32,000 nt of DNA from Halogeometricum borinquense DSM 11551 (lineage in GTDB: Archaea > Halobacteriota > Halobacteria > Halobacteriales > Haloferacaceae), in NCBI RefSeq assembly GCF_000172995.2, contig NC_014731.1:1-32000 (forward strand). The letters are read 5' to 3'. A program made the translations under genes and the position numbers. Below are positions 3,544-32,000 of this stretch, piece after piece (position 1 is the first letter of the stretch; each line of letters starts with the position of its first letter). The notes under the pieces were generated by a model. The model did no database searches. It was not told the origin of the DNA and saw nothing but the letters and a program-made list of their open reading frames with translations.

Positions 3544-3698
3544 TGGGTACTTTCCAGTCCTCATCGAGCTTGAAGACTTTGACGAAACGTTCGGTGACAT
3601 CGATGTTAGACGGTTTGATAGGATTCTTATTTTGTGTAATTGGAGAGAAAATTCTATACGGCCGTACTTCATCGGTCAATAGTACCCAGACAGGAGCC
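3544..3698. promoter_or_regulatory. Shared divergent promoter region between the methyltransferase and the GHKL ATPase
   Basis: 155-bp AT-rich spacer between the two head-to-head start codons (3543 minus, 3699 plus). It contains TATA-like strings such as ttctatac near 3652-3659. No transcript data, so individual boxes are not assigned. Confidence 0.4.
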
Positions 3699-16967: not shown

Positions 16968-17712
16968 GGCACTGTCTAGTTAGTGACCTCCTCAACCGGC
17001 GTACGTCCGTTGAGCGATTGATGCGGTCGTTGAAAGTTATAGTATTGCGCAAATTGTATGAACCACTCGCGGACGCTTCCGTGACTGCCCACCCACGAAT
17101 TATGGAAGCGGTCGACTCGCATTTTGAGGGTATGAAACCATTTTTCGATGAGGTTTCGCTCGACGTAGTCAAGCCGACCGCTCAATCCTAATCGAGAGAG
17201 GGCAGTCTGATAGCCATAGCCATCAACCAGAAACACAGCATCTGAGAGATCATGTTTCTCGGAAAGTCGATGGAGAAACGCAGCAGCCGGATCGGTACCA
17301 TGCCGTCCAAACAACTCGACATCGAGAATCAGCTTCGTCTCGATGTCTATTGCGGCGTACAACCAAGACCACTCACCGTTGATTTTGACAGCGGTCTCAT
17401 CAACCGCAACCCGCTTCGGCGTTGCCTCAGGCGGGTTGTGACCGCTGTCAGCCAGTCGATGTACCCACTGCCAAACAGCTTGATGAGAGCGTTCAACGCC
17501 GAGTATTCGAAGAATTTCTTTTGTCTCTCTAAGCGAACACCCGGTCGCGTGGAGCTGGACGGCGAACACCCTGACGGGTGTCGCCGTCCGCTCACGCTCC
17601 CAAGTTTCTTCATAATCCGTCTCAAAGCACTCGCTGAGCAGGTCTGCGAGCATCTTGACCAACTAACTCAACGACCTGCTCGTTCCTCAAACTGGCTTAA
17701 CTAGACAGTGCC
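16968..17712 (-). mobile_element. IS6-family insertion sequence (ISH-type), copy B, intact, with 8-bp target-site duplication
   Basis: 745 bp. The terminal inverted repeats are GGCACTGTCTAGTTA at 16968-16982 and its reverse complement at 17698-17712. It is flanked by a perfect direct repeat GCCTATTT, the 8-bp size typical of IS6. Confidence 0.92.
16976..17653 (-). CDS. IS6-family DDE transposase (intact)
   Basis: It carries VAVDETAVKINGEWSWLYAAID (first Asp region, a hallmark IS6 string), FLVDGYGY (second Asp) and ERNLIEKWFHTLKMR (Glu region). I prefer the ATG at 17653 (MLADLL); the track start at 17662 is a TTG three codons upstream. Confidence 0.9.
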   Translation of the reverse strand: MLADLLSECFETDYEETWERERTATPVRVFAVQLHATGCSLRETKEILRILGVERSHQAVWQWVHRLADSGHNPPEATPKRVAVDETAVKINGEWSWLYAAIDIETKLILDVELFGRHGTDPAAAFLHRLSEKHDLSDAVFLVDGYGYQTALSRLGLSGRLDYVERNLIEKWFHTLKMRVDRFHNSWVGSHGSVREWFIQFAQYYNFQRPHQSLNGRTPVEEVTN

Positions 17713-17720
17713 GCCTATTT
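17713..17720. repeat. Right 8-bp target-site duplication of IS6 copy B (GCCTATTT)
   Basis: Identical to 16960-16967 and immediately outside the right terminal repeat. Confidence 0.85.
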
Positions 17721-17897
17721 TCTTGCAACAAATGTTCGACATGCAAACGAACTATCACCGTGAGGATGCGAATCCGGGACGGTGCGTTTCGGAAAAACCC
17801 CTGCCCGAATGTATCGTTCGGGACCGAAAGCGTGCCGTGACACCGCGAAATCGGGCACCGTCTCGCGATCCGTCTCGGTGGGAGAATACGGGGCTTC

Positions 17898-18302
17898 TCA
17901 GAGGTTGCTTTCGAGCAACGAGACGATTGACTCCATCCGTTTGTCGACTTTGTCCATGTTGGTGCACGGTTCTTTGTCCACCGTGAGGACTCCATCTTCG
18001 TAGCTGATGTCACCGGTCATCCCTGCTTCGTTCTTGAACACGACCGACTCGAGGTCCGCCTGGAGGGCTTCCCGCCCCAGTTCGTCGCTACAGATCGCCT
18101 CGAAGGCATCGATTGTCGGCTGGAAGTACACTTTCGTCCATCCCTCGAACCAGAGATCTTCGTTGACTCTCTCGTCGATGAGTGATTCCCACTCGATATC
18201 GAGACCGACCTGGAAACCGGCTGCGTCGTCCATCGATTCCTTTAGGGACGGCATTTCATCCTCCTTGAACTCCTTTACTTTTCGCTTATCTCCTAGATCC
18301 AT
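17898..18302 (-). CDS. Acidic hypothetical protein (134 aa)
   Basis: ATG-initiated ORF with strongly acidic, haloarchaeal-type composition (EDEMPSLKESMDDAAGFQVGLDIEWESLIDERVNEDLWFEGW). No motif recognised. Confidence 0.6.
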   Translation of the reverse strand: MDLGDKRKVKEFKEDEMPSLKESMDDAAGFQVGLDIEWESLIDERVNEDLWFEGWTKVYFQPTIDAFEAICSDELGREALQADLESVVFKNEAGMTGDISYEDGVLTVDKEPCTNMDKVDKRMESIVSLLESNL

Positions 18303-18336
18303 TAATTTTTCACTCGGCTATAATATTTATCCTTAG

Positions 18337-18546
18337 TCATTTAACACTACTTATTCGAATCGTCCTTTCACCGCGAGACGCACCGCCTGACGACGGATTT
18401 GGGACACCTGTGTCGAAAGCTTCGCTATCGGGATAGACGTCAACCAGTGTTTCCAGGCGACCCAAGTACTCTTGCTGGTCCGGCTCGGGAACCGGATACG
18501 CCGACCACGGGTCAGCTGTCGGATACTTTTTGATCGGAAGAAACAT
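18337..18546 (-). CDS. 69-aa ORF carrying one copy of the xLxRLExLxxxYPD repeat motif
   Basis: MFLPIKKYPTADPWSAYPVPEPDQQEYLGRLETLVDVYPDSEAFDTG. The string YLGRLETLVDVYPDS matches the unit that repeats about 30 times in the divergent giant gene starting 10 nt away. It could be a real small paralogue or an inverted gene fragment. Confidence 0.35.
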   Translation of the reverse strand: MFLPIKKYPTADPWSAYPVPEPDQQEYLGRLETLVDVYPDSEAFDTGVPNPSSGGASRGERTIRISSVK

Positions 18547-18555
18547 CTTCAGAGT

Positions 18556-20139
18556 ATGAACGACGAGCCCTCCGGCGGAGACGACGTGACCACTGATGAG
18601 ACCGATTCCATCGTGGTCGAGACACTACTCGACGCGCTGAGCCCAGCCGAGGAACTCGGCGACGGAAGGGTCGATGAGGTCGACGACCGTCGGAGGCAGG
18701 CCGAGCAACTCGATGGACTCGTCGCCGAACGCTCACCTGACGAGGGACAGTCTCACCTCGTCGCCGTCGCATATACTGCGATGGTGGACGCTGTCGAGGC
18801 TGGTCGGTTCGAGCGTCTCGCCGTCCCCATCGACCGCCTCGCGACTCTCGTCGGAAGACACCCGTCGTCCGTGCATCTCCGAACGCTGCTGGCTAGGATT
18901 CTCGCCAAGGCAACGTGGGACGAGGGTGCGGCGGGACGGTTCGACGCGCAGGCGGCTCACCTGGGCCACCTCGAATCGCTGGCAGAGAGGGCGCCAGACG
19001 ACGAGGTCACGACTGCCCTCGCACGGGCACGCTTTTTCGCCGCATATCACACGGGGGCGGCCGAACGCTTCGACGAACTCGGGACGCATATCGACCGGCT
19101 CGACTGGCTGGTCGAGGACACAGACGACGTGGGGGTACGACAGGAGTTCGCCCAGGCGTTAGTCAACGCCATGATCGACGCGGGCAAGGCCGGTCGTCTC
19201 GACGCCCTCGACGATCGATTGAGCCGCCTCGATCTCCTAGTCGCCGAGTACCCACACTCACAACTCCAGGTGTCACTCGCGAATGCCCTTGCCATCACCA
19301 CGTTCCATTCCCTGGAGGCAGATCGCGTCGACGACTGTCAGACCCACCTCGACCGCCTCGACGACCTCGCCGCCAAGTACCCGAACACGGACGCCATCCA
19401 GGGCCACTGTACCAGCGCACACTGCCACGTGGTCACCTCCCAAGGCGACCAGCCTGTATGCGAGCGGTCCCTGGACCGTCTCGAAACGCTCGCGACGGAC
19501 AACCCCGACACAATCCCGGTCCAGCTCAGGGTATCCCAGGCCTTCCTCGGCGCGGCACTCGCCGGCCGAAAGCTCCCCGACGGGTTCCGACCCCGTCTCG
19601 AACGGCTCGATGTCCTCCTCAGTGCCGACGGTAACTCCGATACCGACTGGCAGCAGCGACTCGCTGAGACCATCGTTTCCACCGGCCTGGGGCCCGTGGA
19701 CAGCGCTCGACTCGGCGACAGCCTAGAGGCACTGCTCGACAGTCTAGACTCCCTCGTCGCGGACCACCCTGACGACGACCTGCTTCGTCTCGTGTTCGCC
19801 CGGGCGCTCCAGTGGACCACGGCTGCCAAGTGTAAGGCGGGACAGTTCAACGCAACGGAGGCGTCGATCGATCGTCTGGAGCGGCTGGCAACCGAGACAC
19901 CAGACTCCGACCCGGTCCGCCACGTGTTCGCCCGGACCAGCGTCAACGCAGGTATCGACGCGGCGAGGCCGGACGACTCGACATCCTCGAATCCCACATC
20001 CACCGGCTCGCGCGCCTGGTGGCTGACCATTCGGACCCGCACTTCCGTAGCGCCCTGGCGAAGGCCCACCCCGTCGCGACAGTACACCAAGGGCGGGCCG
20101 CCCGATTCGACCAGGTCAAGGCCCATCTCGACAGCCTAG
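18556..20139 (+). CDS. Giant 44-aa-repeat alpha-solenoid protein, 5' segment (frame ends after a 1-nt frameshift near 19962)
   Basis: The ATG at 18556 (MNDEPSGGDDVTTDE) has no signal peptide. About 11 units of the form HLDRLDxLAxxYPDxxxVQxxLAxALxNAxxxxGxAGRFDxxxx follow. After VNAGIDA (about 19962) the translation turns into Arg/Ser/Pro/Thr-rich junk, while the repeat continues in the frame of the next ORF. Confidence 0.75.
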   Translation: MNDEPSGGDDVTTDETDSIVVETLLDALSPAEELGDGRVDEVDDRRRQAEQLDGLVAERSPDEGQSHLVAVAYTAMVDAVEAGRFERLAVPIDRLATLVGRHPSSVHLRTLLARILAKATWDEGAAGRFDAQAAHLGHLESLAERAPDDEVTTALARARFFAAYHTGAAERFDELGTHIDRLDWLVEDTDDVGVRQEFAQALVNAMIDAGKAGRLDALDDRLSRLDLLVAEYPHSQLQVSLANALAITTFHSLEADRVDDCQTHLDRLDDLAAKYPNTDAIQGHCTSAHCHVVTSQGDQPVCERSLDRLETLATDNPDTIPVQLRVSQAFLGAALAGRKLPDGFRPRLERLDVLLSADGNSDTDWQQRLAETIVSTGLGPVDSARLGDSLEALLDSLDSLVADHPDDDLLRLVFARALQWTTAAKCKAGQFNATEASIDRLERLATETPDSDPVRHVFARTSVNAGIDAARPDDSTSSNPTSTGSRAWWLTIRTRTSVAPWRRPTPSRQYTKGGPPDSTRSRPISTA

Positions 20140-22682
20140 AAGCGCTGGCGGCAGACGCTCGCCACGAGGACGAAGTCCTGACCCACTACGCCAATGCCCT
20201 GGCGGACGCCGCCCAGTACGCGGACGACGCCGGTCACAGCGAGGGCTACTGGAGCCGGTTCGACCGATTCGAGGCCCTGGCTGCGGACGCTCCCGATAGC
20301 CGCGTCCCGTTCCACCTCTCCAATGCACTCTTCGACACCAGCAGGATCCTCCTCGATCCCGTCTTCGACGAGGAATCGGACGTCCAGGTCGATTTCGGGG
20401 TGATCGAGGCTTGTCTCGACCGGCTAGACCGGCTCACCGACGACCACCCCGAGGACACCGAGATACAACTGCAATTCGCGAGGGCACTCGCGAATCGCGT
20501 GTGTGCAGCCCCCTTCGCGGACGACGGGAGTCACCTCGGCGAGACGTCCGTCCGCTTCCACCTCGACCGTCTCGACGCCTTGGCGGCCAGGTATCCGGAC
20601 GCAACGTGGATCCAGTCCGAACTGGCCAGTGCCCTGTACAACGCGGCGGTTGCAGCGGCCGACGGTGATCACGTCGCGGACCGACGGTCCGCCCAAGCAC
20701 GTCTCGACGCCCTGGCTACCGACTACCCCGACACCGACGATGTACAACGCATGCTCGCGAAGACCCTCTCGCTGGCTACGTTCCACGACTCCGAGGCCGG
20801 TCAGTTCGAACGGGTCGAGACACACCTCGACCGTCTCGAAACCCTCGCGTTCGACCACCCGGCCGGCGACGCGTGTCAGTCCGAACTCGCCAGTGCCCTC
20901 GCAAACGTCGCTCCCTACCAGCGTCGGGATGGGTACGTCGACGACCTCGCGGCCCGGTTCGACCGATTCGAGACGGTGTCCATCGCCCATTCCGACGTGG
21001 GGATCGCCCGGTCCCTCGCGAAGGGGCTGGTGAGCACGGTCCGGTCGCTCGTCGTCCCGGTCTATATGGACGGCAGTGACAGACGACTGGAGTACGACAC
21101 CATCCAGCGGTACCTCGACCGGCTGGAGGGGCTCGCAGGTGAGTATCCTACAGACGAGGAGATTCATCGACGGCTCGCCGAAGGCCTCGTCACCGGCGTC
21201 ACTGCTGCGTCCCACCTCGCACACGACGGTCGTATCGAGTCCGACGAGCACGAACGCTACCTCGATCGCCTGTCGGAACTGGCGACCGAGTTCCCAACGG
21301 ACGACGGAATCACAGCGCAACTGGCGACGGCCCACCGCAGGGTCGCGCGGGACGCCGGGGGAGTCGGTACCTTCGAGACCCAACAGCGCCACCTCGACCG
21401 CCTCCACGAGTTGGCTTACGACCACCCACACAACGATGACGTGTTGTTCGAACTCGCCCAGGCGCTGGAGGACGTCGCGTCCGTCGACGGCGATCCCGAT
21501 GCGGTCGTCCCAGTGGATTGTGAGAGTTACTTCGACGTGGTCGAGGCCGCCGCTCTCGCGTACCCAGCAGACGTGAACGTCCTTTTTCAGATTTCTAGAG
21601 GCCTCGTCACCGCGGCGGCGTCCGAAGGGAACGCTGGTCGGTTCTCGGAGCTCCGTGCGTGTATCGACCAGCTTGAGGAAATGGTCACCGAGTACCCCCT
21701 CCAGAGCGAGATCCGTATCCAGCTGGCCGTCGCCCACTTCAACGCGACGGCGCCAGCCGGCAAAGCCGGTCGGTTTGACCAGGTCCACTCACACCTCGAC
21801 CGTCTGGAGACGCTGGCTGCCGAGTATCCCGACACCAGACGAGAGGTTCACGAGCGGCTGATTAAGGCTCTGTTCAACACCGCGAAATACCAGGGGCAAG
21901 CCGACCGGTTCGACGCCCTGACCGACACGATCGACCGGGCCGAGGAACTGGCCGCGACCTACCCATCCAGTGACGAGGTCCAGCGGACCTACGCCCTGAC
22001 CCGTTTCACCGCGGCCACGGCCGCGAGACGAGCCGACCGGTTCGAGGAGTGTCGGATCCACATCGACCGCCTGGACGACCTCGTGACCGACTATCCCCAC
22101 GTCCCCGAGATCAGACGCCGGTTCGCGAAGGCGCTCCACGGCATGATGGACGCGTTGTGGAGCGCCGACCGTGTCGATGAGGCACGGGCCACGATGGACC
22201 GCCTCCGATCGGCGGCAGCAGCGTTTCCGGCTGACGAGGAGCTGCAGTGTGTCTCCGCGCGAGCTCTGGTGAACCACTCACGGAATGCTGGTGCGGCGTG
22301 TCACCTTGACCTCCTCTCCGACCACCTCGACCAGCTGGTGACCCTCTACGAATCGTATCCCAGCGGGGAGACTGCCCTCCGCTTGGCCCAGGGACTGTTC
22401 AACACCGTCAGATATCGAGGGGAGGCCGGGCAGTTCGATGATCTCTTCCGGTCGCTCGACCGCCTCGACGACCTCGCCGCCAAGTACCCCGACGGTGACG
22501 TTCCCTACCTGTACGCCAAAACCCTCTCTATCGTCTCGAAATACCTAGGAGAAAACGGCCGGTCCGAGACGGCTGAGCAGTGTCTCGGCCGCATTGAGGC
22601 ACTGGCCGCGGCGCACCCGGCTGACGAGGTGATCCAGTCACGGCTGTCCGAGACACGCCAGCGAAACGCGGTTGAGGAATGA
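20019..22682 (+). CDS. Giant 44-aa-repeat alpha-solenoid protein, 3' segment (continuation of 18556-19962)
   Basis: About 19-20 further units are present (HLDRLETLAFDHPAGD, YLDRLEGLAGEYPTDE, HLDRLHELAYDHPHND, HLDRLETLAAEYPDTR, HIDRLDDLVTDYPHVP, SLDRLDDLAAKYPDGD). The frame is open upstream of the track's GTG start at least to 19920. From 19962 it reads GEAGRLDILESHIHRLARLVADHSDPH, completing the unit broken in the 5' segment. Confidence 0.8.
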   Translation: MADHSDPHFRSALAKAHPVATVHQGRAARFDQVKAHLDSLEALAADARHEDEVLTHYANALADAAQYADDAGHSEGYWSRFDRFEALAADAPDSRVPFHLSNALFDTSRILLDPVFDEESDVQVDFGVIEACLDRLDRLTDDHPEDTEIQLQFARALANRVCAAPFADDGSHLGETSVRFHLDRLDALAARYPDATWIQSELASALYNAAVAAADGDHVADRRSAQARLDALATDYPDTDDVQRMLAKTLSLATFHDSEAGQFERVETHLDRLETLAFDHPAGDACQSELASALANVAPYQRRDGYVDDLAARFDRFETVSIAHSDVGIARSLAKGLVSTVRSLVVPVYMDGSDRRLEYDTIQRYLDRLEGLAGEYPTDEEIHRRLAEGLVTGVTAASHLAHDGRIESDEHERYLDRLSELATEFPTDDGITAQLATAHRRVARDAGGVGTFETQQRHLDRLHELAYDHPHNDDVLFELAQALEDVASVDGDPDAVVPVDCESYFDVVEAAALAYPADVNVLFQISRGLVTAAASEGNAGRFSELRACIDQLEEMVTEYPLQSEIRIQLAVAHFNATAPAGKAGRFDQVHSHLDRLETLAAEYPDTRREVHERLIKALFNTAKYQGQADRFDALTDTIDRAEELAATYPSSDEVQRTYALTRFTAATAARRADRFEECRIHIDRLDDLVTDYPHVPEIRRRFAKALHGMMDALWSADRVDEARATMDRLRSAAAAFPADEELQCVSARALVNHSRNAGAACHLDLLSDHLDQLVTLYESYPSGETALRLAQGLFNTVRYRGEAGQFDDLFRSLDRLDDLAAKYPDGDVPYLYAKTLSIVSKYLGENGRSETAEQCLGRIEALAAAHPADEVIQSRLSETRQRNAVEE

Positions 22683-22737
22683 CCGTTTCCACGGCCGTTC
22701 CTCTCGTGTCGAAGGTGTCGGCGTTCGTGGAGACGGT

Positions 22738-25700
22738 CTAGTCGGCCGTCCCGTCGGATTCGAAGGCGGCCGCGGCGAGGTCGTCGCCCACGACTTCCCG
22801 AAGCCCGTGGTCGAGTCGAGCGACGTAGTCCGCGCTGACACGTGGGTTGGCAGTCGAGAGTTCGTCGGCCGACCGTCTGAACGTCCGTTTGAGCGTGTCG
22901 TCGGTCCGGACGATGCCAGCCTCAGCCGCAGTTTCGATGGACGCACGGACAGCGGCGACGTAGGCTTCGATCTGTTCGAACGGTTCGCCACCTTTCACCC
23001 CTTCCACGACGATGTCGGCGTACACTTCCTCCAGGAACCCGACAGGATCATCGACGCTCGCACTCGCGGCGAACGCGCGGAGTTCATTGTCGAGGCGTCG
23101 CCGCCACGTCGTCGTGTCGTCCTCGACCGCTTCGACCGTATCGACGTAGGCGCGCGTATACACGGACGCGACGAACTCGGCGGGGTCCTCGGGTACCGCT
23201 CGCGTTGCGGTCGCCTCGATTCGTTCGGTGACGACATCCAGCCACGTCTCCACGTTCGCGTGGTCGCTGTTGGTGCGGCCGACGACAGCGAGTGCCCGGG
23301 CATAGATCCGTTCGAAGATACCGGCCCGCTCGATGCCGACCCACTCGAAGTCGGCCCGTTCCTCGGCGGCGGTGAGGACCTCCGTAACGCCGAATCTGAC
23401 TTCCGCTGGTTCGGCTTCGACGGCGAGCGCGAGTGCGGTTCCGAAGACGGAGCTGACGTAGTTCACGGGATGTGGAGGGTTATCCGCCGCCGTTGCCCCG
23501 GTTTCGACCTGAGAGAGTACTGCCTGTACCAAACGGTCATGCGACCGGTTGCCGATATCGGCCCGCGTCACTACTGTTTGGAGGACCGCCGCATCCACTT
23601 CCGCGAAGGCGTCGAACCACTCCATCTTCGTCGGCCCGTCGATCTCCCAGCGGCACTCACGGAAGGACCTGGCGAGCGAGGTGATCCATTCCTGGGAGAC
23701 GCTCGCCTCCCCGTTTGCCGCCCAGTTCACTGCTGCATCGCCAAAAACGCCATCTAGGAACGCGACTGGGTCAGTGACCAAGTCGCCCGCGGCTGCCACC
23801 GTCTCGATGCGGTCGGTGAGCGCCTCGAACCAGACACGCTCCCGGCGTGGCGAGATTCCGGACGCCGAGTCGCGTACCCGCCGACGTGAACTCTTGGACG
23901 ATGAGTCGTCGTCGAATCCGTGTACGTGGGTTGACAGCGCCTCGCGGTAGACCGCCGTCAGGAATCGCTCTCGATGGGCTGTTTCTGTCGCCGCGCCCCG
24001 GGTTACGGACCTGTCGTACAGTTCGATCCAATCCTCGAACCGTGGCGAGTCCGAAAACGGAAGCGCGCCGATGCCGTAGGGGCCGTCGTTGACGCCGTCA
24101 GCGCTCTGCTCGACGCTGGCAAACGCCGCGAGGGCTGCCGCGTGGAGGTCAGCACGCACCGTCCACGCCTCGGCAGCGAAGTCCGACGCCGCGACGGTGT
24201 CGACGAGCCGGTCGCACGCACCGAATAACCGTTCCGCACGGTCGAAGTTGCGGGCTGCGACGACGCGCCGGACGGCCTGCCCGTAGACCTCGGCGACGAA
24301 CGCCACAGGGTCGTCGAGATCCGCGGTCGTCGCGGTTCGGCAGAGGTCCTCCCCGACCGCCACCAGCCAGGGCTCGATCCGTTCGTCAGGACATCCGTGT
24401 TCGAATACCCAGAAGCCGAGTGCGCCAGTGTAGGCGTGCCGGAGCAACTCCGCTCGATTGTCCTGGCGCTGTATGAACACGACCGAATCCCTGATCTGGG
24501 AGCCGAACGCGTCCACCCATGGCGAGAGATTGTCGGGAGAACACGCTGCGCCAGCCACGGCCCCGATTGTGGACGCGAAACTGTTCCCGATGACGAACGC
24601 TGCGAATCCCTCCTCGTTAGTTGCGGCCGCCTGTTGGACGAGTGCGGCGACCGGCGCGAACGCATCGTCGGCCGCCGTGGTGTCCGCAACAGTCTCGATG
24701 ATTCGCTCGGTCATCGCGCCGTAGACGCGACAGCGGAGCGTCAGTCCCGGTTCTTCGGAGATTTCCCCCGCATCGACCGTCCTGTGAAGGACTTGATCGA
24801 CACACGCGAGTGCGCCGTGATTCGGTCCCGAACCGTCTGTCGGCCACGCGAGCCGTGCCAGAGCGTTCGCGAATGCACCCACGAACGGTTCGTGGTCGCC
24901 GCCGACGGAGTCGCGTCCGGGCGGAGTCGCGGTCTCGTTCGTGAGAGCCACCGCACGGTCAGCAATGGCTTCGATCCACTCGTCAGTCGTGGGGTTCTCG
25001 CTCGCCACCGCTGCCATGGCAGTGCCGGAGACCGCTCCTCGGTACCTGATGGCCCCGTCGGTATCGCTTCGATTCAGCCCGACATCCCCAACGAGGTCGT
25101 CGAACAGTGCCAGCCACTGTTTTGCGGCACTCGGTCGCGCGGTCCGCGCGACAACAGCGACGGCGTCGGCGAGTACCCGACCCACGAACGCCGCGTCGAG
25201 ATCTTTGTCGGGCATGCCAGCGATTGCCGCCAATGTACTCTGGTCCGTGATTTTCTCCACGTCGAGCGTCAGACGGGACGGGTGTCGGGTGTCCGGCCAG
25301 TCCATCGCCGAAAGGAGGTCGTCGGCGACCGCTCGGGATGTCCGATCAGGTGCGACTGCGATATCGTCTAGCTCGAACTCGGTTCGGTCGCGCCAGGCGG
25401 CGACGTCGGCACAGCCGGTCCGGTCGGCGATGGCGTCGAACTGCTCGCGGAACTCGTCGTCACAGATGAGCAGTGCACCCGAACAGGTGCCGTCAGCGAC
25501 CCACTCGACCAGCGACCGAACCCCCGCATCACTCGTGATCCGTGCTGGCCCGGCACCGTAGGTTGCGACCACGACCGCGTCCGACGTGGCGTCGATGCCC
25601 ACTCTGATGTAGTCGGGGCGGCTGAGATCGGAGAGTCTGACCGTCGCCCCCCACGTCGTGAGTTCCGTGGCGACGTTCGCTGCAAGCCGTCGCTTCCCGC

Positions 25701-26970
25701 TCGCTTTCGGTCCCGAGAGGACGACGACCCCGCCATCGAGTGCATCGACGACCTCGTTGACGCTGACCCCCGCCGGTCCGTCGTCCGTTTCGGGGCCGTC
25801 GTCCGAGTTCGGGAACTCCCGCTCTGCTGCAGCCGTGTGTAACGTCTCTGGTTCCTCCCAGTGCCAGGCACCGACGAGTGGAGCGGAGCCGTACTCGTCG
25901 GGTCCGACCGCGGCCTTGTCCAGTGACGATCCGACTGCTCGCATGCCAGCTCGGATCTCCTCGAAGGCGGCACTCGCGTTGGTGATGGCTGTCTCGGTTT
26001 CGGGCTGGGCCGCCAACCGCTGGCCGATCTTCGTCCGTATCGACTCGGACGCGAACACCCGAAGGTGATCGATCGTTCCCGGTGGGAGATCGAAGGCGAT
26101 TTCGAGCGCTTCGGCGGCTCCCGCCAGCGGCCGATGGCGAACGAGCGGCTCGAACCACGCCGTGTCGTCGGCGGCGAGCGAACTCGCGACGAGAGCGAGT
26201 GCGGTGGCCACCGCTGGCGACAATGCAGTCGGGTCACGACCGGCGTCCTCGGCACGTGGATGGAGCGACGAGATGAGTTCGAATGTCGCCTCACCCAGTG
26301 GTTCGACCGTGATATCACAGTCACCGACCACCGTCCTGACATCCGGTCCGACCAGAACCGTTTCGGACCCGTACTGCGAGAGCGAGAGGAAGGCCGCGGG
26401 TGTGACGGTCTCCTCGATGGTCCCGACCCGCTCTTGGAGGCCCTCGTCCGCGAACTCGTAGTTAGGATAGGTGATGCGTTCGACGAGGGACGCGCGATCC
26501 TCGTTACTCAGTCCAGCAGGACGTCGGTGGCTGGTGCGCTTGCGGATTTCGTCGATCACATCGCTGCTCTCCGCAGGCGGCGTTCGAACCACGAGCACTG
26601 AATCGACCTGCCCGACGATGTCACTGGACATGGGGAGATCGCTTTGGCATAACCAGTCGAGACTCCGTGGCCGCGTTACGAGGACGGCACCTCCGGGACG
26701 AGCGAACAGGGCGTTCATGCTGGGCGGTTCTCCGTCCGTCGAGTAGTCTTCGTCGCTCAGATCGAACGTCGCCGCGACAAAATCGTCGATGACCACGAGT
26801 TCGTCGTCTTCGACGGCGCTTGCCGCCGCGAGGCGCTCGACGGACGGGCCGACCTGCCGCAGGTGATGTGACTTCCCAACGCTGGGTGCCCCGAGGACGA
26901 GTGTAACTTCGCCTGGGCTGACCGCGTTGCACAGTTCGCCAGGTGTGACCTCTCGAATAGCATCTTCCAT
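22738..26970 (-). CDS. 1410-aa tandem P-loop NTPase with a long alpha-helical repeat C-terminus (STAND/NLR-like architecture)
   Basis: The first P-loop has GAPSVGKS (26869-26892) with LVVIDDF about 28 aa later. The second has SGPKASGKR (about 25690-25716) with ALLICDDEF about 75 aa later. Residues about 660-1330 (22981-24993) carry at least six copies of a degenerate unit ending in DPVAFVAEVYGQA, DPVAFLDGVFGDA, HPVNYVSSVFGTA, DPAEFVASVYTRA, DPVGFLEEVYADI. There is no signal peptide. Confidence 0.85.
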   Translation of the reverse strand: MEDAIREVTPGELCNAVSPGEVTLVLGAPSVGKSHHLRQVGPSVERLAAASAVEDDELVVIDDFVAATFDLSDEDYSTDGEPPSMNALFARPGGAVLVTRPRSLDWLCQSDLPMSSDIVGQVDSVLVVRTPPAESSDVIDEIRKRTSHRRPAGLSNEDRASLVERITYPNYEFADEGLQERVGTIEETVTPAAFLSLSQYGSETVLVGPDVRTVVGDCDITVEPLGEATFELISSLHPRAEDAGRDPTALSPAVATALALVASSLAADDTAWFEPLVRHRPLAGAAEALEIAFDLPPGTIDHLRVFASESIRTKIGQRLAAQPETETAITNASAAFEEIRAGMRAVGSSLDKAAVGPDEYGSAPLVGAWHWEEPETLHTAAAEREFPNSDDGPETDDGPAGVSVNEVVDALDGGVVVLSGPKASGKRRLAANVATELTTWGATVRLSDLSRPDYIRVGIDATSDAVVVATYGAGPARITSDAGVRSLVEWVADGTCSGALLICDDEFREQFDAIADRTGCADVAAWRDRTEFELDDIAVAPDRTSRAVADDLLSAMDWPDTRHPSRLTLDVEKITDQSTLAAIAGMPDKDLDAAFVGRVLADAVAVVARTARPSAAKQWLALFDDLVGDVGLNRSDTDGAIRYRGAVSGTAMAAVASENPTTDEWIEAIADRAVALTNETATPPGRDSVGGDHEPFVGAFANALARLAWPTDGSGPNHGALACVDQVLHRTVDAGEISEEPGLTLRCRVYGAMTERIIETVADTTAADDAFAPVAALVQQAAATNEEGFAAFVIGNSFASTIGAVAGAACSPDNLSPWVDAFGSQIRDSVVFIQRQDNRAELLRHAYTGALGFWVFEHGCPDERIEPWLVAVGEDLCRTATTADLDDPVAFVAEVYGQAVRRVVAARNFDRAERLFGACDRLVDTVAASDFAAEAWTVRADLHAAALAAFASVEQSADGVNDGPYGIGALPFSDSPRFEDWIELYDRSVTRGAATETAHRERFLTAVYREALSTHVHGFDDDSSSKSSRRRVRDSASGISPRRERVWFEALTDRIETVAAAGDLVTDPVAFLDGVFGDAAVNWAANGEASVSQEWITSLARSFRECRWEIDGPTKMEWFDAFAEVDAAVLQTVVTRADIGNRSHDRLVQAVLSQVETGATAADNPPHPVNYVSSVFGTALALAVEAEPAEVRFGVTEVLTAAEERADFEWVGIERAGIFERIYARALAVVGRTNSDHANVETWLDVVTERIEATATRAVPEDPAEFVASVYTRAYVDTVEAVEDDTTTWRRRLDNELRAFAASASVDDPVGFLEEVYADIVVEGVKGGEPFEQIEAYVAAVRASIETAAEAGIVRTDDTLKRTFRRSADELSTANPRVSADYVARLDHGLREVVGDDLAAAAFESDGTAD

Positions 26971-27208
26971 GAATTCCCTACGACCGCTCCCGCCGACGAC
27001 TGCGTCCGGGCGGCAGACCCCGCCGAGTGTATCTCGTCAGTAAGTCTACTTGTGAGATAATTGTTTGCTGTTGGAATAGCCATCGACGAGTCACTGATAC
27101 GTCACCTGAAGATATTTTCCCGCTTGTCCACCAAGAGTCGCTATACAGTGTGACCAGCCGACGAGAGCACCCAAGAACGAGGATGCAAGGACACAACGAA
27201 ACCGGATA

Positions 27209-27700
27209 GTGGCCATCCCAAACATCTCGGATGACCGTCATCGAGTCGATACGCACTTCCAGCGTTTGTAGCTCATAGCGGGCCAACAGTCCAGCAATCC
27301 CAAGCTGCAGCGCGACGTATTCGGCGGTATTGTTTCCCGTCCGGGAGCTGACGGGACGGCCGAGCCGGGCGAGTTCGGTTTCGGTAGCGTCCATGATGAC
27401 CGCGCCTGCACCCGCTGGGCCGGGGTTGCCGCGTGAACTTCCATCGACGTAGAGGATGAACGAGTTGCCCGTCGGCTCCGGGGCCGGTGGCTGGCTGAGA
27501 TCCGACACCAGCACGCTGTCGAGCGCGCGACGCAACTCGGATGGGGTGGTTGTGGGATCAAACAGGCCACCATATCCGGGCACGGCGGCATCGATGGCGT
27601 CGGTGGCAGCTGCTATCTCGTAGCCGATACGTGCAAGTACCTCATCGACGAGCGTCGCGAGTGGTGAGCAGTGTTCGACCGGGAGCGGTTCCTCAGTCAC
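27209..27700 (-). pseudogene. rnhA: Type-1 RNase H, N-terminal two-thirds (gene disrupted, probably by inversion)
   Basis: From the GTG at 27698-27700 the sequence reads VTEEPLPVEH...SFILYVDGSSRGNPGPAGAGAVIM...TGNNTAEYVALQLGI...VRIDSMTVIRDVWDGH. This supplies the first Asp, the Glu and the second Asp of the RNase H DEDD set in canonical order. After His (27209-27211) the ORF continues to 26978 as non-RNase-H-like sequence. The track ORF's 5' extension to 27859 is antisense to the C-terminal fragment. Confidence 0.8.
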
Positions 27701-27705
27701 GCCAG

Positions 27706-27873
27706 CACGACGACCCGAGGGAATCGGGTGTTGAGACGTACAGCACAGCCATCGAAGCAGCACTAGCGACGATTCCAGAACACCGGTATACACATCTCGC
27801 TGACAGTGATCCGAATCCTGCTGACGCGTTGGCGACAGTGGGCGCCGATATCGCGGCATTGGGACCCGGGTAG
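27706..27873 (+). pseudogene. rnhA: Type-1 RNase H, C-terminal fragment on the opposite strand
   Basis: The last 55 codons of ORF 27541-27873 read HDDPRESGVETYSTAIEAALATIPEHRYTHLADSDPNPADALATVGADIAALGPG. The H-x5-N-x2-AD-x-LA pattern is the C-terminal catalytic His/Asp segment of RNase HI. It joins seamlessly to ...DSMTVIRDVWDGH from the minus-strand part. Confidence 0.7.
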
Positions 27874-28008
27874 GAGTTTGTTTAACAGATGGCGAGGAAC
27901 GCCTACGTCGGGATATTTTTTGCTTCTTAAGCGCGGCAGGAAGTCAAATATGGGAGTCGTACTAGCTTATTTTTGGATGACATTTATGTGCGTCTAGTAT
28001 CTGGATTG

Positions 28009-29142
28009 ATGCGGATGACTCAATTATCCAACCAGTTCACGTCGAGGAATCAATCGCGTCGCCGTTTTCTGACCAAACTGGGCGCCACGGGCGTCACCCT
28101 TGCAGGGATGGGTTCCACACTCGTCGATACGGCCACCGCAACTGCAGGCTACACCGAATTCGACGAGGTCTGGTGGGACCGCATCGACAACACCTGGTAT
28201 ACAAAATGGGAAGCACCCTCTGACTGGCCTCTTGACCTCAGCTCAGCGAACACGTACGACGCGGGTATCACTATCAGCCGTGTGCTCTACCTCGCTAACA
28301 TCACCGAACAACCCAACGGTAACTACAACTATGATACCCCTGGTTACGAGTACGAATTCGGCCTCAACTCGTTCGGCGTCGTCGCCGCCCGTCCCCGCGA
28401 TAGCGCCGACGGCTCCGGCCCCCTCGACGAACCAGAATCGGGCAAGCCCGCTTTCGAGAAGGCCTTCCACTCCAAACATACCCTCGAATCGAATATCGAG
28501 AACTACTCCGGGACGAACAACCTCTCCAGTATGCTCAATCCTGATCAAATCCATCTTCATCGGGGAGTCCCGGATGCGGTCGTTGAGGCATCCGGTAACG
28601 ACTGGTTGACCGACAAAGACCTCGAGAACGTCGATACCAGCGAGACCAACACCAAAATAGTCGGCGGCGCTGGCCTCGCACTCGGTGTCCTCGGTGCCAC
28701 CATCCCCAGCGGCGTCGGCCAAGTCGCCAGCGGCGCAAGTATCGCACTCTCCGCAGGAACGCTTGTGAGCGATCTCCTTGACACGGAACCTGGTAGCCAA
28801 CAGACGATGACTGACGACACCTGGAAACATCAACTCAAAGAGAATAACGACAAGTTCTACGGCGACCGCAAGAACATCGCTGGCTTCCAACACAGCGCCA
28901 ACCTTCCTCTATTCGTTCCCGAAGGCGAATCGATGGAGATCTCCTTCCGCGACCGCATTGAGTTCGACGGTGATGATCGAGGCACCTACATCCACGGCTA
29001 CCCCGTGGGGGCAGATGAGTTTATCAAAAACAACCTCGAAGACTCATTCACAGTTTCTATCCCAGCGAACGAGGTCGGCAAGGAAGCCGATATACCCAGT
29101 GTCACCGACAAATCTGGCACTGGGCCCCAGCAACTACCCTAG
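28009..29142 (+). CDS. Tat-secreted protein of unknown function
   Basis: The twin-arginine signal is NQSRRRFLTKLGATGVTLAGMGSTLVDTATA. I prefer the ATG at 28009 (or 28015) over the track's TTG at 27973. The mature part is acidic, with an internal Gly/Ala-rich hydrophobic stretch (GGAGLALGVLGATIPSGVGQVASGASIALSAG). Confidence 0.7.
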   Translation: MRMTQLSNQFTSRNQSRRRFLTKLGATGVTLAGMGSTLVDTATATAGYTEFDEVWWDRIDNTWYTKWEAPSDWPLDLSSANTYDAGITISRVLYLANITEQPNGNYNYDTPGYEYEFGLNSFGVVAARPRDSADGSGPLDEPESGKPAFEKAFHSKHTLESNIENYSGTNNLSSMLNPDQIHLHRGVPDAVVEASGNDWLTDKDLENVDTSETNTKIVGGAGLALGVLGATIPSGVGQVASGASIALSAGTLVSDLLDTEPGSQQTMTDDTWKHQLKENNDKFYGDRKNIAGFQHSANLPLFVPEGESMEISFRDRIEFDGDDRGTYIHGYPVGADEFIKNNLEDSFTVSIPANEVGKEADIPSVTDKSGTGPQQLP

Positions 29143-29719
29143 GTAGTACTGATTGTCGCGCTTGCAAGACATTTCTCTCGTTATATTAGTACCATTAAAT
29201 ATAAATCGGTTAGAATAAACACAAACCACAGTATTTTAGATTTTTTGTTATCTGGTCCTCTCCATCCGGCAAGTAGCTTGGAATGACTCTAACCCTCAAC
29301 AGCAAAGACACATCACGCTAGTATCTTCGGATCAACCCGGATGGCACGTTCCTCATCTCCACCCAGTGTAGGTAGAGTGGCATGACGTGGCAACGGAGGG
29401 ACTCACCATCCGGATGTTGACACAAGACACTGAAAGGACACACTCGCAGTTCTAACGACGGCTGCTTCAGCGGGATAGGATTTCAACACAACAGTCTAGC
29501 GTTTGTACTCCTCTGGAGTAATTTGACTCGGAGCAGCAGCCTTCAGGCGACTAATATCGGTCTCAGTGTACCGAATTCAGTGTCAGTCTCTTCCAGCCAC
29601 TTTGAGAGACCCTGAGCCTGCTGATGGTGACGGGATTCAGTGGGCGTGCTGCAGACAGGGTGCGTCTCTCGCACGAGGTCGATTCTCTGACCGGCGAGTG
29701 GTCAGAGGCGACGGTGCAG

Positions 29720-29932
29720 TTAGCGTAAGGTAGAAACGATAAGGAGGGCGAGAATGCCGAGTACAATAGCGACTGCCAACTTGAGCGCAAGTCTCATCCG
29801 AATACCAAGTAACCGTATCAAGAAGAAAACGACAGCAGTGGCAACTAGAAAGCAGGCAGCGAGTACGACAACACCCACGAGAGGCCCGATGTCTTCGGAT
29901 GATCCATTTCGAGGACGACTGGAATTAGTCAT
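29720..29932 (-). CDS. Small two-TM membrane protein (hypothetical)
   Basis: 70-aa ATG ORF with two hydrophobic helices (PLVGVVVLAACFLVATAVVFFLI and LAVAIVLGILALLIVS). Confidence 0.4.
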   Translation of the reverse strand: MTNSSRPRNGSSEDIGPLVGVVVLAACFLVATAVVFFLIRLLGIRMRLALKLAVAIVLGILALLIVSTLR

Positions 29933-30422
29933 TTAATAGAAGAGATCAGTGGTCAATACAATTAGTTACTGATGTGGATCCGTGAGTGGTCGCTGAATGT
30001 GCAGTCGGATAAGTAACCAGTCGAAGACAATACGATAGTGGCTCCTACCCCGGAGTCTCGAAGTCTGAACACATCGCTCAGCGGTTGACGTACCACACGG
30101 AGTTCTGGACATCGTGAAGTCACGTGGCTCTGGCTACGGACACAGCGTCTGCGGCACCGAACTCACGACAGTTGCGACGACAATCCTAGCACCGAAGGCG
30201 TGTTCCGGAAGAGAGGGCACTCAGCACCACCAACAGTGCGACTCTAGAGCGCCAGATTCGCTCTATACTGGAGTTTTCAGCGTGTACTCGCTAATTGAGA
30301 GCGCGAAACGAGCAGCAAATCCAAGCTGTTCAAAAGCAGCCCGGTGCTGTCATCCAGATCGGCTCACTAGGTACAGCGATACGAATTTCGTCAAAGTGAC
30401 ACAGACGGACGGCTTATCAGCC

Positions 30423-31616
30423 TTAGACGTTACCGTTGATGATGTCGGCGACCCGCTGACGGTCGAACAGTTGCTCCTCTTCGGGAACATCATGAATCGA
30501 TCCCGGCCACTCGCCGTACTCGTCGGGATACAGCTGTTTGGCGAGCGCCTCTGTTGAGAAGAGATCGATAATCGGCCCCATGTATTGGCCGCCAGTCCGG
30601 ACGAAGTTCCCGTTTTCGACGGCACGTAGTTGACTCAGCACGTCGTGGTCTTGTGCCGTCTCGACGACCTTCTGGAGCTGGGAGTCATCGATATACGAGA
30701 GGTAGCCGATCATCCCGATGTAGTCGGGGTCAACATCGAGGAGTTTCTCGATCCCAACCGGCTTGAACGGAACGTATTCTTCGCCCTGGAACGCATTGTT
30801 GACACCCAGCATCCGGAAACTCCGTGTATCGTTCCGTGGCGCGTCGATGTTCGCCGCGAAGAACTTCCCAGACTCGGGGTCGAACCCGAAGTTGAACGCG
30901 GCGACTGTCGGTTCGTCGCCTCCCGAGACGGGCACACGGGATTCAATGTCGGCGTAAAACGACTCCTTGAGAGTGACCCACGCCTCGTACTGAGCTTGGC
31001 GCTGGAAAATCTGTGCTGCCTTCTCGAACGCCTCGTAGAGCGTGTAGTACGGATCGCGTCCGCCGAATGGGAACCGAATCAGCGACCCGAGAATCGGGCC
31101 GACGTTCGATTCGATCTCTTCGAGGTCTTCGTCGTCCCACCCTGAGTACTTCTTCAGCATACGCGAGTCCATGAGATGGACGTCAGCGTCAACGTCGTAG
31201 AACACCTCCTTATCGTACTTCGATTCGGCCGATTCACCGAGCGTTCGGACGGCGTCGGCATCGAAATCGACGCCGGGGAGCGCATCGTAGTACTTCAGCG
31301 GGAGCCGGTCGAAGGCGGCGACGGCTTTCGGCTGGATGCCAAATCCCATCGCGATGTCCATCCACGCTCCGGGAATGCTCGCGTACGTTTCCGGGACTTC
31401 CTCGAACGTGTGGCGCCCCGCCGGCTCAATCGCCACCTCGTACGACGTCGGAGTGTCCGTCGGCGAGTTCGTCGCCGTGTCAGCCGCATCTGCCGGTGTT
31501 GGGTCACCACCATCGCTGGTGCATCCTGCGAGTAGACCCCCGCCGAGGATGGTACTGCCGCCCTGTATCATCTCTCTCCGCGTCGGAATCTCGTGAACGT
31601 CAGTCTCTGCTGCCAT
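30423..31616 (-). CDS. ABC-transporter substrate-binding lipoprotein, periplasmic-binding-protein type (FecB/BtuF-like, probably iron-siderophore)
   Basis: The signal is TRREMIQGGSTILGGGLLAGC (RR plus lipobox Cys), followed by a Thr/Asp/Pro linker. The mature part has the layout I associate with Peripla_BP_2 proteins (YEVAIEPAGRHTFEEVPETYASI, DKEVFYDVDADVHLMD, LLDVDPDYIGMIG). An iron-box-like operator overlaps its promoter. Confidence 0.75.
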   Translation of the reverse strand: MAAETDVHEIPTRREMIQGGSTILGGGLLAGCTSDGGDPTPADAADTATNSPTDTPTSYEVAIEPAGRHTFEEVPETYASIPGAWMDIAMGFGIQPKAVAAFDRLPLKYYDALPGVDFDADAVRTLGESAESKYDKEVFYDVDADVHLMDSRMLKKYSGWDDEDLEEIESNVGPILGSLIRFPFGGRDPYYTLYEAFEKAAQIFQRQAQYEAWVTLKESFYADIESRVPVSGGDEPTVAAFNFGFDPESGKFFAANIDAPRNDTRSFRMLGVNNAFQGEEYVPFKPVGIEKLLDVDPDYIGMIGYLSYIDDSQLQKVVETAQDHDVLSQLRAVENGNFVRTGGQYMGPIIDLFSTEALAKQLYPDEYGEWPGSIHDVPEEEQLFDRQRVADIINGNV

Positions 31617-31618
31617 GT

Positions 31619-31636
31619 TTTTAGGCTAGCCTAAAA
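31619..31636. promoter_or_regulatory. 18-bp perfect palindrome TTTTAGGCTAGCCTAAAA, a DtxR/IdeR-type iron-box-like operator
   Basis: The perfect dyad starts 3 nt upstream of the substrate-binding-protein start codon (31616). It lies between that codon and a TATA-like ttatata (31639-31646 on the plus strand). The core TTAGGCTAGCCTAA differs by one base from the TTAGGCTAACCTAA portion of the IdeR consensus as I recall it. Confidence 0.5.
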
Positions 31637-31763
31637 GTATATAACTATTTCTACCGGTCGATCAGACGACTACGAAAACGGGTCTCGACTACCCTGGCCT
31701 GTCCGGTCCAGCGGTGGGACTTGTGTCACTGCCACGGTGTCGTCCTCTTGATTCAATCGGGCA

Positions 31764-32000
31764 TCAGTCGGAGATGTTCCTCCCGTCACTCCCCGTCGTC
31801 TCCGCTTGTTCGGCCACGTATTCCTGTAACCGATCGTCGTCGATGACCTCAAGGAGGAGTTCCTCGTCGAGATGAGTAGCGAGCCGTCGGTGTGCACGTT
31901 CTCGACGATTGTCAATCTCTGATCGGTCGAGGTGAGTGGATTTGACGAACTCGATTTCGCGCTGGCGAATCCGTTGGAGTCGCTCCTGCTCGATGTCGTG
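31764..32000 (-). CDS. C-terminal part of a hypothetical protein (5' end beyond the window)
   Basis: The frame is open from the window edge to a TGA at 31764-31766. It translates to HDIEQERLQRIRQREIEFVKSTHLDRSEIDNRRERAHRRLATHLDEELLLEVIDDDRLQEYVAEQAETTGSDGRNISD, which is charged and helical and more protein-like than the track ORF 31670-31915 in another frame. Confidence 0.5.
   Translation of the reverse strand, partial: HDIEQERLQRIRQREIEFVKSTHLDRSEIDNRRERAHRRLATHLDEELLLEVIDDDRLQEYVAEQAETTGSDGRNISD

Follow-up and report, generated by a model that had tools for sequence, protein, structure and literature searches.

The first 32,000 nucleotides (nt) of contig NC_014731.1 of the haloarchaeon Halogeometricum borinquense DSM 11551, the stretch analysed here and referred to below as the window, contain an RNase HI-family gene that lies in two pieces on opposite strands. 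The cause is one inversion of 497 bp with exactly defined ends, which is fixed in the strain; neither repeats at its ends nor a nearby recombinase gene accompany it, and the strain retains an intact paralogue. We consider it very probable that the locus is a unitary pseudogene made by this single small inversion. A preliminary description of the window had likewise proposed that one RNase H gene was split by an inversion of about 500 bp, and that proposal stands: the re-inverted gene is collinear with more than 100 homologues, its profile match lengthens on re-inversion, and a sister strain (L008) retains an un-inverted junction.

On the minus strand, a GTG start codon at 27700-27698 opens a reading frame that encodes MTEEPLPVEH…YVDGSS…NNTAEY…RIDSMTVIRDVWDG(H), or, in a fuller reading, MTEEPLPVEH…FILYVDGSSRGNPGPAGAGA…NNTAEYVALQ…EVRIDSMTVIRDVWDG. 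Taken alone, this N-terminal piece exceeds the gathering thresholds of both Pfam RNase_H PF00075 (34.5 bits, cut-off 25.8) and RVT_3 PF13456 (24.0 bits, cut-off 21.6), yet in each profile the match is confined to the first half (positions 3-73 of 141 and 2-75 of 123, respectively). The rest of the gene is found on the plus strand, where positions 27706-27873 read HDDPRES…YTHLADSDPNPADALATVGADIAALGPG followed by a stop (the frame from 27706 being HDDPRESGVETYSTAIEAALATIPEHRYTHLADSDPNPADALATVGADIAALGPG, with the stop at 27871-27873). This second piece gives no profile match of its own in Pfam or NCBIfam; its assignment to the RNase H C-terminus is upheld by its alignment with residues 164-217 of the intact paralogue WP_013440792.1 (85% identity, 46/54, E = 3e-30). 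Specifically, the segment thladsdpnpadala of the plus-strand piece aligns with thvpratneradalan of PDB 4E19.

Flipping positions 27212-27708 unites the two pieces in one 217-residue protein. When this rejoined protein is compared with the window by tblastn, two pieces on opposite strands are returned (E = 7e-114 and 1e-31), a match far beyond chance, whereas 29 of 31 loci from other haloarchaeal species give a single collinear match. Of the other two loci, one is interrupted by a contig end and one matches residues 5-127 only. The split arrangement is thus shared by none of the relatives that were compared. The partial locus, at L041 3019-3399 in the metagenome-assembled genome A07HR60 (KI543234.1), shows these residues alone within the 3-kb flank and may be another truncated copy. 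A search with the rejoined protein found 805 relatives, the best 120 of which are all 216-253 residues long and 75-84% identical at 99-100% coverage; the top relative, of 218 residues, is 84% identical over 100% of its length (E = 7e-110).

Profile and structure comparisons point the same way. The proposed alignment of the re-inverted protein to PF00075/PF13456 gives the predicted gain, as the RVT_3 match grows to positions 2-121 of 123 (31.5 bits), and the NCBIfam RNase HI alignments reach the profile ends after rejoining. The RNase H chains 3U3G and 4E19 of the PDB align over the whole rejoined domain, and the fourth catalytic Asp is that of …NPADALA… in the plus-strand piece; this structural alignment confirms that the minus strand encodes the first three catalytic residues and the plus strand the fourth-Asp segment (...NPAD...LA). 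All four carboxylates of the DEDD set therefore occur in one polypeptide only in the conceptual re-inverted protein, and not in any present open reading frame (ORF). With respect to family, the N-terminal piece and the re-inverted protein score 47.7 and 51.3 bits against NCBIfam NF041306 (RnaseHI_Halo), for which the equivalog cut-off is 300, and the split gene is accordingly a member of a paralogous haloarchaeal family rather than the canonical haloarchaeal RNase HI.

The ends of the inverted segment can be placed to the base, save that 27213-27707 is equally possible because 27212 is a G and 27708 a C; this single nucleotide (G…C) is the only inverted homology between the segment ends. Homology to the family ends at codon G163 (27212-27214) and resumes at D164 (27709-27711), and the flip recreates TGG GAT GGC/GAC GAC CCG (VWDG/DDP, with the slash marking the join), as in the family alignment across this junction, which reads …RDVWDG/DDPTEP… and contains no His. 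A nucleotide comparison with the intact gene of H. borinquense strain L001 gives two separate matches to the window, one in reverse orientation over 27212-27690 (86-88% identity) and one forward over 27708-27869 (77% identity). Three re-inversion models were aligned to this intact gene, and 27212-27708 scored 880, against 872 and 868 for 27209-27705 and 27209-27708. The pair 27209-27705, which had been proposed first and yields two adjacent His residues, and its one-His variant 27209-27708 were rejected on these scores and for being at odds with both the family junction and L008. The inversion and the single plus-strand gene of about 220 codons foreseen for the re-inverted state (217 in fact) are thereby retained; the coordinates were 3 nt off, and the seamless H(H) junction gives way to an ancestral VWDG/DDPRES.

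The same flip restores an upstream junction, GGATAGTG/GTGCTGGCGTGACTGAGG (…GGATgGTG/GTGCTGGCGTGACTGAGG…), and this can be compared with the sister H. borinquense strain L008 (GCA_004150395.1, contig RZHH01000002.1), whose flanks are 99.1-99.6% identical to the window on both sides and 99.3% identical through 27212. In L008 the upstream junction is un-inverted and reads GGATgGTGGTGCTGGCGTGACTGAGG; from the leader to the gene start the sequence is …GGTG GTGCTGGC GTGACTGAGG…, or, in window orientation, …CAAAACCGGATGGTG GTGCTGGC GTGACTGAGGAACCGCTCC…. It equals the window up to 27211 joined to the reverse complement from 27708 downward, with no base added or missing and one single-nucleotide polymorphism. 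We regard this junction as the decisive evidence on the breakpoints, and one pair of breakpoints restores two independent things at once, namely the reading frame with its family junction and the natural upstream junction.

In the ancestral order, a tandem GTGGTG precedes the gene, and the left break separates its two copies at a point 8 nt ahead of the start codon; the right break falls exactly between codons 163 and 164, inside the coding sequence. One GTG stayed at 27209-27211 and the other travelled to become CAC at 27706-27708 (plus strand), the last three bases of the transported leader, and it is for this reason that a His codon is seen at both junctions. The gtg and cac reported there are indeed present; read as protein codons, they do not hold up, being leftovers of the tandem leader, and neither His belonged to the ancestral protein, both being by-products of the junctions.

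We next weigh whether the rearrangement is genuine. Window positions 17623-32000 are 100% identical to AOHT01000022.1, an independent draft of DSM 11551, which ends at 17623; the window must therefore come from a different assembly. The finished genome of the strain was built from Sanger and 454 reads and includes five plasmids (PMC3035229). Logan contigs from run ERR481281 are also 100% identical over 22460-27383, which includes the left junction, and over 27409-32000, which includes the right. Both junctions are identical in the three assemblies, which renders an assembly artefact unlikely. The break between the two Logan contigs falls not at a junction but within two runs, of 52 and 32 nt, that are identical in the paralogue, where a k = 31 graph would be expected to break. 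Such runs, inside the segment and shared with a paralogue on the same replicon, can confuse assemblers, and a mis-oriented segment could have arisen in this way. They sit, nonetheless, 170-320 nt away from either junction, the paralogue is merely 79% identical overall, and the finished Sanger/454 genome, the Illumina-era draft and the Logan contigs agree completely across both junctions, so that we attach next to no probability to mis-orientation during assembly. The shared runs themselves (window 27354-27438, paralogue locus L092 4001-4657) could be due to an earlier tract of gene conversion or to strong constraint on the GNPGPAGAGAVIMD…ELARLGRP region.

In terms of mechanism, an inverted-repeat search found no pair with arms at 27212 and 27708, and no serine or tyrosine recombinase was found by Pfam among ten large ORFs of the window or by PADLOC among five proteins that include the 1410-residue neighbour; the repeat search and both scans agree with the earlier remark that long inverted repeats and an invertase gene are lacking. 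The nearest recombinase-like ORF, an IS6-type DDE transposase at 16976-17662, is about 10 kb off. Microhomology, which had been suggested as a mechanism, is essentially absent at 1 nt. Two further candidates were set aside: a 19-nt, 84% inverted repeat (27227-27245/27796-27814) is off the breakpoints and was a direct repeat before the inversion, so that it cannot have mediated it, and a GGATRG motif that lies 5′ of each ancestral break, at a distance of 1-2 nt, is no more than expected by chance.

A programmed invertible switch (inverton), in which the 497-bp segment flips reversibly and so toggles the RNase H paralogue or redirects transcription to the 1410-residue gene, would account for base-exact rejoining at both junctions, as in conservative site-specific recombination. 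It would also suit a left break just upstream of the start codon, where a flip uncouples the gene from its promoter, and a truncated ORF that ends 8 nt before the ATG of the neighbouring gene. Such a switch is nonetheless extremely unlikely, as flanking inverted repeats are absent (inverted homology at the ends amounts to 1 nt), no gene for an invertase or integrase is close by, all three assemblies show one orientation, and neither junction causes a branch in the de Bruijn contigs. Moreover, the coding sequence is itself cut by the right break, inversion produces a basic nonsense tail in place of an alternative protein, the alternative state occurs in 0 of 29 complete homologous loci of other species, and the sister strain simply deleted the gene. 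The 1-nt end homology, the lack of an adjacent recombinase, the joining without gain or loss of a base and the one orientation together favor a single homology-independent event over a switch; a break-and-rejoin such as topoisomerase/gyrase-type strand exchange, or the precise joining of two breaks, would fit. The site-specific switch and the assembly artefact, both entertained in the preliminary description, are now disfavoured.

A different possibility is that the two pieces are functional genes, expressed separately and complementing each other or serving new roles. Both are still free of internal stops, and the 240-residue ORF at the locus is listed as RNase H in public gene calls. Past ...VWDG, however, this minus-strand ORF continues through 77 codons of unrelated sequence and ends at a stop 8 nt ahead of the ATG (26970) of the 1410-residue gene, as had been described. 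The tail was found in no homologue, either by similarity search or in the alignment of relatives; its isoelectric point is 11.1 (13 K+R against 4 D+E), compared with 4.2 for the genuine RNase H part, and the GC content drops to 0.44-0.53 across it, as a low-GC intergenic stretch. A frameshift in place of an inversion was rejected, as the other two minus-strand frames below 27212 contain no RNase H sequence. Exact look-ups of the 240-residue product returned no record, though the gene appears in locus tables. The C-terminal piece, for its part, has no start of its own: the sole ORF that contains it, 27541-27873, opens with 55 antisense-derived residues, and the 54-codon piece is absent from the genes called at the locus. 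Given also that the N-terminal piece lacks the last helices and the fourth Asp, that no relative has the arrangement and that the region is deleted in the sister strain, we find two functional genes hardly credible. Because the last helices and the fourth Asp have been parted from the three-residue core, neither fragment can be expected to form an RNase H fold, and the copy would be dead; neither is likely to be expressed as anything useful.

Loss of this copy was probably tolerated, since DSM 11551 carries the intact 218-residue paralogue WP_013440792.1 on the same replicon, followed by sfsA. The two copies share 79% DNA identity and differ in genomic context. For Haloferax volcanii, several type-1 RNase H paralogues have been reported, some of them on pHV4, and back-up roles have been suggested for them (PMC7776575, PMC12639248), which fits the redundancy of the split copy. 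L008 has itself lost the gene by another route: window 27636-29682 is missing there through a deletion of about 2.0 kb on the un-inverted background (L008 11936-12016), which starts at codon 22 of the un-inverted RNase H gene and reaches beyond the downstream end of the 375-residue gene, with GAGGTAC on one side of the joint and GAGGTCG nearby on the other. Two sister strains thus appear to have disrupted the same RNase H gene independently. A scan of species-representative genomes for the 5′ end of the gene found none; an intact allele of this particular copy was therefore not obtained, and 84% identity is the most that any intact relative reaches. The ancestral left and right junctions were also sought in metagenomes, again without a match.

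This second loss, together with the position of the locus in a strain-variable cassette slot and a frameshift in the neighbouring 1375-residue gene, could be taken to indicate a more complex history, in which the fragments were left by several rearrangements or by recombination with the paralogue. We judge this a most improbable course of events. One flip is enough to recover the two junctions to the base, with none lost or inserted, and the flanks on either side remain collinear with all four of the related loci; a multi-step path needs more events for the same outcome, and an identity of 79% shows that the segment was not copied from the paralogue.

The single-inversion account would run as follows. 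An ancestor of DSM 11551 would have carried, on the 339-kb replicon, an intact plus-strand gene for a 217-residue haloarchaeal RNase HI-family protein, transcribed from the region that is now 27099-27211 and followed by the 375-residue gene. Two breaks, one at the tandem GTGGTG 8 nt upstream of the GTG start and one at the boundary of codons 163 and 164, would then have been rejoined in the opposite sense with no base gained or lost. Codons 1-163, with three of the four DEDD residues, would thereby have come to lie on the minus strand, separated from their promoter and fused to 77 nonsense codons, and codons 164-217, with the His and the fourth Asp, would have been left on the plus strand without a start. 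The old promoter region would now read the antisense of codons 163 to 1 and then the orphan C-terminal piece, toward the 375-residue gene, and the N-terminal piece, its promoter lost, would point at the 1410-residue gene. The rejoined ORF contains no further stops or frameshifts, which argues that the event is recent. The locus thus has the features of a pseudogene by rearrangement, with an ORF disrupted relative to intact homologues, a recoverable ancestral state and an upstream junction kept in a relative.

Several considerations weigh against this account. Loss of function is judged from domain architecture, and base-conservative joining would also be expected from a site-specific recombinase acting on pseudo-sites, so that homology-independent break-and-rejoin is a candidate mechanism. 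The orientation is known from assemblies, and a minority of cells may carry the other; all three assemblies come from the type strain, and the inversion could be specific to a culture-collection stock. Finally, among 136 positions conserved to at least 95%, the rejoined sequence departs from consensus at 8, compared with a mean of 1.6 and a maximum of 6 among 121 homologues, but as a sign of relaxed constraint or decay this excess is at best a weak one. Joining that is exact to the base, between ends that lack homology, might suggest something other than a random accident. It is highly unlikely, all the same, that the inversion is instead the footprint of an unrecognised haloarchaeal recombination activity (recombinase- or topoisomerase-like, with degenerate sites) or a low-frequency reversible switch that silences a plasmid-borne paralogue; were that so, the independent gene loss in the sister strain would reflect selection against the RNase H paralogue.

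Under the pseudogene interpretation, the 240-residue "RNase H" gene call in the type-strain genome would be a pseudogene fragment with a 77-codon nonsense tail. The locus would also offer a well-documented natural small inversion in an archaeon, which could be used as a data point on illegitimate recombination in polyploid haloarchaea. Type-1 RNase H paralogues of haloarchaea, moreover, appear dispensable, given two sister strains with different disrupting mutations and an intact paralogue in the type strain.

Table 1. Features of the split RNase H locus and its surroundings, in window coordinates; residue numbers (D86, E127, D152, H192, N199, D202) are those of the 217-residue ancestral protein.
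Feature	Position	Strand	Remarks
Inverted segment, 497 bp	27212..27708		Flip restores family junction and upstream junction
Codons 1-163 of RNase HI-family gene	27212..27700	-	GTG start, N-terminal domain, catalytic D86, E127, D152
Codons 164-217 and stop (27871-27873)	27709..27873	+	C-terminal helix region in original orientation; H192, N199, fourth catalytic Asp D202
Former 5′ leader, eight bases (GTGCTGGC on minus strand)	27701..27708	-	Moved with inverted segment; seen in L008
Former upstream (promoter/leader) region of RNase H gene, not inverted	27099..27211	+	Left end of strain-variable cassette
Read-through tail, 77 codons and stop (26978-26980), fused to truncated ORF	26978..27211	-	Antisense reading of non-coding DNA
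Strain-variable cassette slot, 1410-residue gene to Peripla_BP_2 gene	27099..30225		Flank homology comparison
375-residue gene, twin-arginine-like N-terminus (SRRRFLTKLG)	28015..29142	+	Same orientation as ancestral RNase H gene, same cassette
1410-residue P-loop protein gene ADQ68833.1	22738..26970	-	Landmark, outside rearrangement

The replicon that carries the locus, of 339,010 bp and without an entry in PLSDB, is probably one of the five plasmids of the finished genome, which its size would fit, and two proteins of the window correspond to records of H. borinquense DSM 11551 (the 1410-residue protein to ADQ68833.1/ELY28736.1 and a 397-residue protein to ADQ68837.1/ELY28733.1). The window can be aligned at the DNA level to H. 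mediterranei pHME505 (93%), H. mucosum and two H. borinquense strains as far as 27091-27098, and again, in the H. borinquense strains, from 30226. The slot so defined has sharp boundaries (…GAGTCACTGAT on the left and CCACCAACAGTGCG on the right). In DSM 11551 and L008 it holds the RNase H paralogue and the 375-residue gene; in L007 (3385-5872) and L009 (11399-13886) it holds Imm49 and SUKH/SMI1_KNR4 genes between flanks that are 94-96% identical. The split gene does not appear, then, to sit at a conserved rnhA locus. An orthologous locus sought by way of the 1410-residue neighbour was discarded, as that neighbour is not beside an RNase H gene in H. mediterranei pHME505, H. mucosum or the two H. 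borinquense strains. Because the gene sits in a variable cassette, only L008 is informative for a comparison of the locus.

The 375-residue protein has no Pfam or PADLOC match, PADLOC was equally negative for the RNase H and for both giant genes, and neither sfsA nor the 375-residue gene accompanies the RNase H family in the 31 other loci. Downstream of the 375-residue gene lies a sharply AT-rich spacer (29150-29300, GC content 0.30). The two giant genes form a convergent pair, one encoding the 1410-residue protein with an N-terminal GAPSVGKS P-loop and the other (18472-22682) a protein of about 1375 residues with weak BTAD/DUF6584 matches. Relatives of the former, at 45-90% identity, fall into 29 clusters from many haloarchaeal genera, several of them on plasmids. 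The conserved 1375-residue gene is split by a 1-nt deletion at 19964 (GG in place of the GGG of L008, L009 and H. mediterranei pHME505) into the overlapping ORFs 18472-20139 and 20019-22682 in both DSM 11551 assemblies, and it looks like a second pseudogene at the locus. The same gene contains an exact 35-nt direct repeat (19348-19382/22455-22489) that encodes LDRLDDLAAKYP twice, which is the reason the Logan contig ends at 22460. In L008, it is a run of 70 N in the scaffold at 13645-13714, and no real truncation, that makes the giant protein WP_242492810.1 "partial" at 923 residues. Elsewhere in the window, inverted repeats of 90 nt (14463-14552/17623-17712, 92% identical) enclose about 3.2 kb that includes the IS6-type (DDE_Tnp_IS240) transposase ORF; as AOHT01000022.1 ends exactly at 17623, this unit is probably a repeated mobile element. 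The window also encodes an N6/N4 DNA methylase (1789-3672), a HEAT-repeat protein (8868-10904) and a UvrD-C-like helicase (12538-14343).

Among known systems, the split gene is closest to the haloarchaeal "ribonuclease HI family protein" of 216-218 residues (WP_013440792.1, WP_363466654.1), a type-1 RNase H with an N-terminal extension of about 75 residues. The 217-residue re-inverted sequence is 75-84% identical to it over 100% of its length and shares the invariant motifs YVDGSSRGNPGPAGAGA, NNTAEY, RIDS and YTHLADSDPNPADALATVGADI; the present gene differs in lying in two opposite-strand pieces that are unable to encode the domain. The RNase HI of Halobacterium salinarum NRC-1 (PDB 4E19/4NYN) likewise combines a type-1 RNase H fold with an N-terminal extension and aligns over residues 73-210 of the re-inverted protein, which places all four DEDD residues, but it belongs to another paralogous family, as the NF041306 score far under the cut-off attests.

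With the Hin/Gin/Cin serine invertases, FimB/E and Bacteroides-type invertons, the rearrangement shares a short segment, a precise flip without base loss and the inclusion of a region upstream of a start codon. The invertible segments of programmed inversion switches are typically 0.3-1 kb. Unlike those systems, the present segment has no flanking repeats and no recombinase gene, one of its breaks is intragenic, one orientation is observed, and there is no conserved occurrence in relatives. The inversion is an ordinary, one-off mutation and reveals no new system: like a spontaneous illegitimate rearrangement, it has 0-1 nt of homology at its breakpoints, occurred once in one lineage and affected a gene with a redundant paralogue, and it differs from the typical case in the unusually clean joining, with no insertion or deletion at either junction.

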